Shown: in pieces, positions 27,181 through 28,085 of the stretch
Layout: each line of letters opens with the position of its first letter
How positions within the stretch are numbered: position 1 is the first letter of the stretch
Origin: Octopus vulgaris
Lineage: Eukaryota
DNA: 64,000 nt
Assembly: GCA_951406725.2 (NCBI GenBank)
Contig: OX597831.1
Coordinates: 42,470,001 to 42,534,000, forward strand
Direction of reading: 5' to 3'
The notes under the pieces: generated by a model
Seen by the model: the letters and a program-made list of their open reading frames with translations, nothing else
What the model was told of the DNA's origin: nothing
Databases searched by the model: none
Program-made: the position numbers and the translations under genes

Positions 27181-28085
27181 ATTCATTTATTAGCCACAAG
27201 GGCTTACATAAAATTACATTAGAACACATACAACAACATAAAAGACAAAACCAGGATGATACAATGGGTTTTACACTGTGTAAACAATATGTATATAATG
27301 ATTAAAAATTAAACAATTTGAAACTCCCAATAGGGGAGGTGCTTTAAGGACCTCGTAGAAAAACCCGCAAAAACCACAGTTGCCTGAACAACAGGGCAAG
27401 AGCCCTTCTCCTTTTGTTTACAGGTGCATGCTCAGAATTGGTCTTTCGCACTGGCTGTTCTTCCAACATTCACCTACCTTTCAACAAACTTGCTACAAGG
27501 CAACACTTCCCTCTCCACCCTCGCCTTCCTTTTCAAGTGAAATTGAAAAAGTTGATGGACATAAAGTTGTCTTTAGCCCTTTCAAACTGGTCCCCAAAGT
27601 CCATCCCCTCCTCACCATGGTGGGGACACTGGCAACGGGTAGTGTCAGAGCTATGCTGTCGGGAACTTCGGTTCCTGGTAGGGCCACCCAAGGCGGATTG
27701 GTCTGACACCGAGTGGTATTAGGGCCACAACCCAGCAGACGGGGCTCTGGTGAAAATCCTTGGAGTTTCTGCTTCGGCAACCAGCAGCTCCTCGGTCGTT
27801 CTGTCCTTGCGTCTGTGGACAATCTGCGGCAAACAGGATGTCTCCACATGCGGGATTGTTGGGGACCGCTTGTGAAATCCACATATTCCCACGAAACTTC
27901 TTCCATGAGTAGAAGAAGCCGACTCAACCCGCCCAGGGTGAATGTCGCCACAAGTACAAGTAAGTTTCAAACTGGTCCACCATACTACCTCTTTTACTAC
28001 AGCCACTAGACAAATAAAAATTGCCTTCCCCCTCCTGGCCAAAAGAGGACAGTGGGGAAATCTTCACAATGGATTCAGCTGATGA
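27181..28085 (-). mobile_element. Tx1-family LINE 3' fragment (related to 32546-34418), split by an insertion
   Basis: SAESIVKISP..SF.QEG / VAVVKEVVWWTSLK|GLKT parallels SAESIVNIVT..SFKQEG / VAMAKECIWWTCLKGLET; ends GCCCTTGTGGCTAATAAA. Confidence 0.85.
27594..27964 (+). mobile_element. 371-bp GC-rich non-coding retroposon with 14-bp TSD and CAAGTA-type tail
   Basis: TTTCAAACTGGTCC at 27580-27593 and 27965-27978; removing the insert restores the host Tx1 reading; 3' end ACAAGTACAAGTAAG. Confidence 0.85.

Follow-up and report, generated by a model that had tools for sequence, protein, structure and literature searches.

An internally deleted RTE element in Octopus vulgaris: a predicted HDV-like ribozyme and rearrangement breakpoints near the LINE start codon

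What kind of element is the short GC-rich stretch that splits an older LINE fragment in the genome of Octopus vulgaris, and how did it come to consist of two ends without a middle? The window, that is, the whole stretch of DNA that was analysed, comprises 64,000 nucleotides (contig OX597831.1, forward strand, 42,470,001 to 42,534,000). The insert occupies 27594-27964 (371 nt) between exact direct repeats at 27580-27593 and 27965-27978, and the perfect 14-bp target-site duplication claimed by the first-pass annotation is thereby borne out. The features are as follows.

27500..28048, minus strand: older host LINE fragment, split by the insert and related to the ORF with RT and zf-RVT at 32615-34336
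27580..27593, plus strand: left target-site duplication, 14 bp, whose last 4 nt are also family positions 3-6
27594..27908, plus strand: 5' part, taken from the 5' UTR of the RTE LINE termed family A below; its end lies about 11 nt short of the likely start codon of that LINE
27897..27918, plus strand: surroundings of the deletion junction 27908/27909, which lies within a 7-bp stem whose arms are about 3 kb apart in the LINE
27909..27941, plus strand: 3' part, the end of the RTE ORF (10 codons and the stop)
27942..27964, plus strand: short 3' UTR and repeat tail, in common with the LINE
27965..27978, plus strand: right target-site duplication, 14 bp

Given that the left repeat overlaps family positions 3-6 by 4 nt, the window copy lacks the first bases of the family and was joined through microhomology. 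Most of the earlier description of the insert agrees with what was found: its GC content is 0.56 (27600-27899) against 0.25-0.45 in the adjacent 300-nt bins, ARAGORN detects no tRNA in it, and removal of the insert with one repeat rejoins the host frame and lengthens the tblastn alignment with the 32.6-kb ORF from 28 to 32 residues (E from 1.7e-4 to 5e-9), with WWTSLK-GLKT spanning the rejoined site. The tail reads ACAAGT twice, followed by AAG. The label "ORF-less" is correct insofar as the insert is short and encodes no protein, but 27909-27941 is the end of the RTE ORF, and the 3' part is thus ORF end plus short UTR, not UTR alone. The presumed assignment of the host to Tx1 draws on RVT_1 and a sub-cutoff zf-RVT match, both in the related 32.6-kb ORF. 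The description as "hairpin-packed" is not borne out by energy: the fold is no better than chance (19/100 shuffles fold as well, z -0.95), the family majority UTRs score z -0.9 to +1.0 against shuffles, likewise not above chance, and the first hairpin of the earlier list competes with a covarying P1/P3 pairing described below.

The insert is repetitive in its own genome (2.8 Gb), where a search returned 1,733 candidates, 40 of which were scored and proved nearly full length at 94-100% identity. Exact matches number 437 for a 24-nt tail motif and 480 for a 21-nt 5' motif, and cross-counting of two motif samples gives an estimate of about 750 bipartite copies of this family, termed family A, lying on average 7% from their majority sequence, many of them flanked by target-site duplications. 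Public runs under four organism labels also contain the insert sequence, with loose ends at both termini. Among 30 tail-motif loci, 22 are bipartite (three of these being one duplicated locus), and the remaining eight are 5'-truncated LINEs that run upstream into an RT C-terminus. Walking upstream yielded three colinear LINE copies (3,061, 3,396, and 3,347 nt), which are flanked by short repeats, and a fourth long copy with an ordinary 5' inversion. The first ~316-323 nt of the insert are present in all four (90-97% identity), as are its last 54-58 nt (91-100%). Because both its parts match the two ends of this LINE, the insert equals the LINE minus about 3 kb. Hence the copy number, the common ends, and the autonomous partner of 3.35-3.4 kb with both termini that had been proposed as checks are all found in the same genome, and the insert is almost certainly a bipartite non-autonomous RTE, possibly ribozyme-bearing as had been suggested, with an HDV-like fold fitting the majority sequence. 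Bipartite RTE derivatives are a known kind of element. A spliceosomal origin of the deletion was considered and rejected, as the junction lacks GT-AG and is not the same in all copies. In a few cases (L016, L020, L081, L272, L284, G000:C30:2173373-2174094), partial or tandem 5'-end duplications lie directly upstream of a copy.

The partner LINE carries a frame for APE and RT (Exo_endo_phos, RVT_1) that is broken in all copies examined. The label "SR2-like" is not established for it. Its RT clusters with flatworm RTs, apart from CR1-type and host RTs, in a tree without a named RTE reference, and its size, single ORF, and very short 3' UTR with repeat tail match the features described for RTEs (~3.2-3.9 kb, 4-5-mer repeats; PMC1291365). 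Two sister families, B and C, were recognised at RT identities of ~70% and ~53%, and a more remote family, D, at ~33%, with a range of 32-70% among the families; the 5' UTR is kept at 79-84% identity in B and C, and the distant family D opens with the same 5' motif. A generic RT search returned one CR1-type and three other RTE-type families, none with the ends of the insert by blastn; family D is one of these, and its common 5' fold was recognised later. Metagenome relatives are distant (25-41%), and no convincing 5' motif was found in them.

How the middle was lost can be approached through breakpoints, scored against an interval of -30 to +45 nt around the likely start codon that was chosen afterwards. 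The family A sample, the first 100 of the 480 listed loci with the 5' motif (three of them one duplicated insertion), comprises 85 direct bipartite copies, 6 inverted, 4 long, and 5 with a 5' piece only. The direct copies represent 25 junction types, 23 of which fall inside the start-codon interval. In five of the six inversions, the 5' UTR is reversed against the 3' piece, ends at AUG+8 to +29, and skips 1.9-2.8 kb; the sixth is of the ordinary type. For family A, a uniform null gives p = 4e-8, a value to be read with the interval having been set post hoc. For B, C, and D, loci were collected by 5' queries, 30 of the 40 listed for each, a design that bounds the breakpoint below and not above; direct and inverted copies number 22 and 6 in B, 4 and 17 in C, and 9 and 10 in D (one D pair duplicated), and the inversions inside the interval are 6/6, 17/17, and 5/9, respectively. 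A flanking repeat of at least 8 bp accompanies 24 of these 32 inversions. Over all families, 32 of 36 distinct insertions joining an inverted 5' UTR to a short 3' end break inside the interval and skip about 2-3 kb. The control, a single young and longer LINE family presumably of CR1 type (so labelled for a C-terminal motif), differs: of 30 loci with its 5' end, 27 continue into the LINE and a single one is inverted, whereas direct bipartite copies are absent. Across four RTE families, independent rearrangements thus break near the start codon, which suggests that the end of the 5' UTR adjoins the 3' end of the RNA during insertion, and we consider it somewhat more probable than otherwise that both RNA ends are held together at that stage.

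Amplified junctions are filtered by selection. The clustering might also be explained without any tether, for the same element and ribozyme, if the RNA directly behind the folded 5' UTR is the first that is open and AU-rich and if short copies with a full UTR finish more often. The stretch after the AUG is of low complexity (CUA and AAU repeats), several inversions have 2-8 nt of microhomology at the priming site, the energy of the 5'-3' duplex is unremarkable in A and B, and the loci were sampled by their 5' motif. Against this, inverted copies are unable to amplify and so cannot have been selected that way; processivity alone would favour shorter 5' pieces, whereas 0/6 sample inversions end between 80 and 300; and the class is absent from the CR1-type control. 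In ordinary twin priming, the second primer also adjoins the first-strand stop (the gap is 1 nt in L124), whereas the inversions here skip 1.9-3 kb. The comparison extends to the 5' inversions of L1, reportedly described by Ostertag and Kazazian in 2001 (cited in PMC6007223): as in L1, an inverted 5' piece and a forward 3' piece share one target-site duplication, but the second primer lies at the start codon with 2-3 kb skipped rather than next to the first-strand stop. We regard clustering without a tether as less likely than not, though as the most probable of the rival explanations.

What would hold the ends together is less clear-cut. In all four families, the region of the AUG is complementary to the final codons, and the letters on the two sides change together. 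The complementarity in family D (13 + 4 bp) is the longest Watson-Crick helix available, occurs in the full-length fold, and has three direct junctions at its edge, and the 7-bp stem closing the junction of the window insert occurs in the full-length fold of family A. The duplex energy ranks 62/81 in A and 66/82 in B, which is weak or ordinary, against 4/80 in C and 5/75 in D, and the full-length fold of family C does not contain the duplex at that site. Folds of 3-kb RNAs are unreliable. Given the fit in D, the ordinary energies in A and B, and the missing duplex in the fold of C, base pairing as the tether is only plausible; it is convincing in one family only, and we hold it tentatively. 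Protein bound to both RNA ends, as reported for R2 (PMC6765202), offers an alternative. A looped RTE RNA as a clade-wide state, with the 5' UTR end against the last codons through partly covarying pairs and with two-ends-only copies arising in direct or inverted form, seems to us to have somewhat less than an even chance.

The 5' module itself is predicted to fold as an HDV-like ribozyme. In the window copy, the corresponding positions, all on the plus strand and derived from a descriptor fitted to family majority sequences, are as follows.

27588..27750, plus strand: predicted HDV-like ribozyme domain
27588-95/27622-29, plus strand: predicted P1
27609-11/27619-21, plus strand: predicted P3
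27612-18, plus strand: predicted L3
27613-14/27630-31, plus strand: predicted P1.1
27601-03/27748-50, plus strand: predicted P2b
27605-08/27741-44, plus strand: predicted P2a
27636-27734, plus strand: predicted P4
27736, plus strand: predicted catalytic C of J4/2, part of a C-N-N-A motif in 4/4 families, its role taken from HDV-like ribozymes

One descriptor fits the majority sequences of A, B, C1, and D as a double pseudoknot that starts at the first base of the element, with the order P1-P2-P3-L3-P3'-P1'-P1.1'-P4-J4/2-P2'. P1 has 7-8 bp with different letters in all four families, and yet 8/8, 7/7, 6/7, and 6/8 positions pair; in P2a, families A-C have CCCC/GGGG where D has CCGU/ACGG, a set of compensatory changes. 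Comparison of the four RTE families hence reveals covariation in P1 and P2. J1/2 is 9 nt in 4/4 families, P2 is 4 bp and continues for 3 bp beyond an internal loop, P3 consists of 2 pairs and a U-U, L3 is 7 nt, and P1.1 is 2 bp (CA/UG). For comparison, an HDV-like ribozyme would be expected to have about 7 bp in P1, 3 bp in P3, and at least 5 bp in P2. In A-C, P4 carries a branched insertion that brings it to ~100 nt, whereas D has only a short hairpin there, and the C-N-N-A junction is kept in all four families and in the window copy. The descriptor background is one unrelated match in 3.4 Mb (both strands) and 1/20,000 shuffles, two further "other" matches in the 3.4 Mb being family members; these rates are optimistic because the descriptor was written after the sequences were seen. 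Scanned against Rfam, neither the window nor six family loci nor one locus each of B and C gave a ribozyme, twister and hammerhead included, at E up to 5-10. Together, the comparison points to an HDV-like variant that is common to four RTE families and is missed by Rfam, and the family probably contains an active form of this predicted ribozyme. By-eye fits to hammerhead, twister, and pistol failed at the core motifs.

The window copy is a poor representative. It fails the descriptor, with bases 1-2 gone and 12 substitutions, 8 of CpG type, and its decayed positions (27588-89 lost; 27617, 27628, and 27734 changed) cover P1, L3, and P4; the majority alleles at 27617, 27628, and 27734 are present also in four public runs. 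The earlier attempt at a fold by eye failed because this copy lacks two P1 bases and has CpG changes in P1, L3, and P4, and by its sequence it is probably inactive. All core pairs are intact in only 6 of 74 A-like copies. Three family A loci (L377, L389, L404) hold only nt 1 to ~160, stop at the predicted catalytic junction, and have no 3' piece near. At the 5' junction of L014, the upstream bases are the reverse complement of the bases after P1', as from cDNA snap-back on the P1 hairpin, and P1 complementarity could be partly self-templated in this manner. Family D (L415, L417-L446) has a compact version of the HDV-like fold, ~95 nt long.

That the module is instead an internal promoter, a protein-binding site, or a translation element of HDV shape that does not cleave would accord with the lack of an Rfam match, the deviant P3, the short P2a, and the first 77 nt of L1Tc, which also act as a promoter whose start is the cleavage site (PMC3185411). 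Yet five helices and C-N-N-A are kept across families of 32-70% RT identity, and copies begin at the first base of P1, from which 33 of 78 family A copies align. Some ribozymes of R2 are reported to tolerate mismatches, among them an active one whose mismatch is in P3 (PMC3774820 section 16; further tolerances for comparison are in PMC3774820 sections 16 and 18, PMC3185411, and PMC4035085). We consider a non-cleaving element rather unlikely. In subfamily C2, which does not fit the descriptor, the first ~25 nt are gone and up to ~200 nt of additional sequence stand at the 5' end; such a replacement would be expected of a module that determines where the element begins, and a promoter in the new head would explain it as well. 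The C2 head is a GC-rich repeat of ~200 nt that is also found alone, has no Rfam match, and may bring its own promoter; C2-type ends were seen at L285, L290, L293, L296, L299-L301, L304, L309, and L310, and also at L086, L292, L361, and L381.

Taken as a whole, the explanation we favour, with a probability of roughly 70%, is an internally deleted RTE whose RNA is excised by a ribozyme, copied in trans, and kept with its ends adjacent during insertion. The family RNA would begin in read-through host transcripts, the HDV-like ribozyme would cut it before base 1, the RTE protein would likely copy the bipartite RNA in trans, and target-primed reverse transcription would start from the common tail. 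Such elements may originate in a LINE particle that brings the 3' end of the RNA next to the point where the 5' UTR stops: a jump of the RT across the looped-out ORF would give direct bipartite copies, able to amplify, and priming of a second target nick at the 5' UTR end would give inverted ones, unable to amplify. Pairing between 5' and 3' bases, a protein on both ends, or the two together could serve as the tether.

A further reading treats the inverted copies as ordinary twin priming on RNAs that were already short and bipartite, and thus as uninformative about full-length RNA. Each of the four families has bipartite RNAs, and two B inversions (L259, L269) share both breakpoints. Neither piece of the inverted copies, however, contains a bipartite junction, and in many inversions the 3' piece exceeds that of every bipartite copy sampled from the family concerned (3' piece positions: A 2739; B 2206; C 2314 and 3069-3195 versus 3198; D 2743 and 2875 versus 2885); in family C, inverted copies also outnumber direct ones, 17 to 4. 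This reading is improbable. As for the second option that had been offered, a retrocopy of some structured RNA of the cell that is not yet described, or a tRNA-headed SINE, shortness, lack of a protein, discrete ends, and hundreds of copies would suit either, but both can practically be dismissed, since the full length maps to two LINE ends and the head, in which neither a tRNA (ARAGORN) nor an Rfam match for a tRNA- or 5S-derived SINE was found, is LINE 5' UTR.

Several described systems resemble the octopus elements. Bov-A, RTESINE2, WALLSI3, and RTE-N2_Lch likewise join the 5' end and the 3' end of an RTE by internal deletion, without a small-RNA head, and are mobilised through the common tail (Kojima 2018, PMC5786205); in the octopus set, at least 25 junction types from three families, together with an inverted class, are mapped to the start codon. 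NARTc/L1Tc with L1TcRz (PMC3185411) and R2 SIDEs (PMC3414825), for whose origin template jumping has been weighed against recombination (PMC3414825), are also short deleted elements with a 5' HDV-like ribozyme cleaving at the first base, and L1TcRz tolerates C at position 1 (PMC3185411), as predicted for B, C, and D. In contrast, the elements here belong to a different LINE clade and have a predicted 2-bp P1.1 (CA/UG), a U-U in P3, and a P4 insertion of ~100 nt in A-C. HDV-like ribozymes in RTEs are reported by Ruminski 2011, as cited in PMC5786205 and PMC6765202; no Rfam model matches the fold predicted here. Perere-3 of Schistosoma mansoni is an RTE with a 5' self-cleaving ribozyme adjoining the target-site duplication (PMC8501958), but its ribozyme is a twister, whereas that predicted here is HDV-like, with no twister match.

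Why only few LINE groups (RTE, Ingi/Vingi, R2) make elements of two ends only is left unexplained in Kojima 2018 (PMC5786205), and the breakpoints provide a testable answer to the question of why RTEs spawn bipartite elements. If correct, looping would be a clade-wide property that explains the seeding of bipartite SINEs by RTEs, and the inversions would form an undescribed insertion class with second-strand priming fixed at the 5' UTR boundary. Literature consulted mostly at the level of titles and abstracts, with the older Bov-A/SR2 papers lying outside it, yielded no description of start-codon-fixed inversions or of 5'-3' pairing in RTE RNA. RTE-1 and Vingi systems with a payload between the 5' and 3' UTRs are in development as gene writers, and truncation frequencies for RTE-1 are not disclosed (PMC13708176). 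Were the behaviour built in, gene writers should be watched for by-products in which the enzyme has skipped from the 3' end straight to the boundary of the 5' UTR.

The window holds other repeats. A very young CR1-type LINE of 4.7 kb, with copies more than 99% identical (L447-L452) and many having an open 949-aa ORF, was noted, and a fragment of it lies within the window at 10600-11412 (minus strand). An abundant short repeat family of ~300-400 nt has at least 8 window copies, located as follows.

5666-6025: short repeat family copy
22376-22704: short repeat family copy
26653-26865: short repeat family copy
29347-29759: short repeat family copy
30486-30887: short repeat family copy
40110-40467: short repeat family copy
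42656-42921: short repeat family copy
45656-46061: short repeat family copy

A second repeat family is clustered and partly tandem (14063-14811, 21383-22203, 39511-39758, 57189-59174, and also 28150-28293), and one of its copies lies directly right of the host LINE fragment. A third, of ~400 nt, occurs at 23425-23868, 51156-51553, 52360-52757, and 53429-53743, with inverted neighbours at 51-53 kb, and a tandem array with a period of ~80 nt spans 15898-16569.
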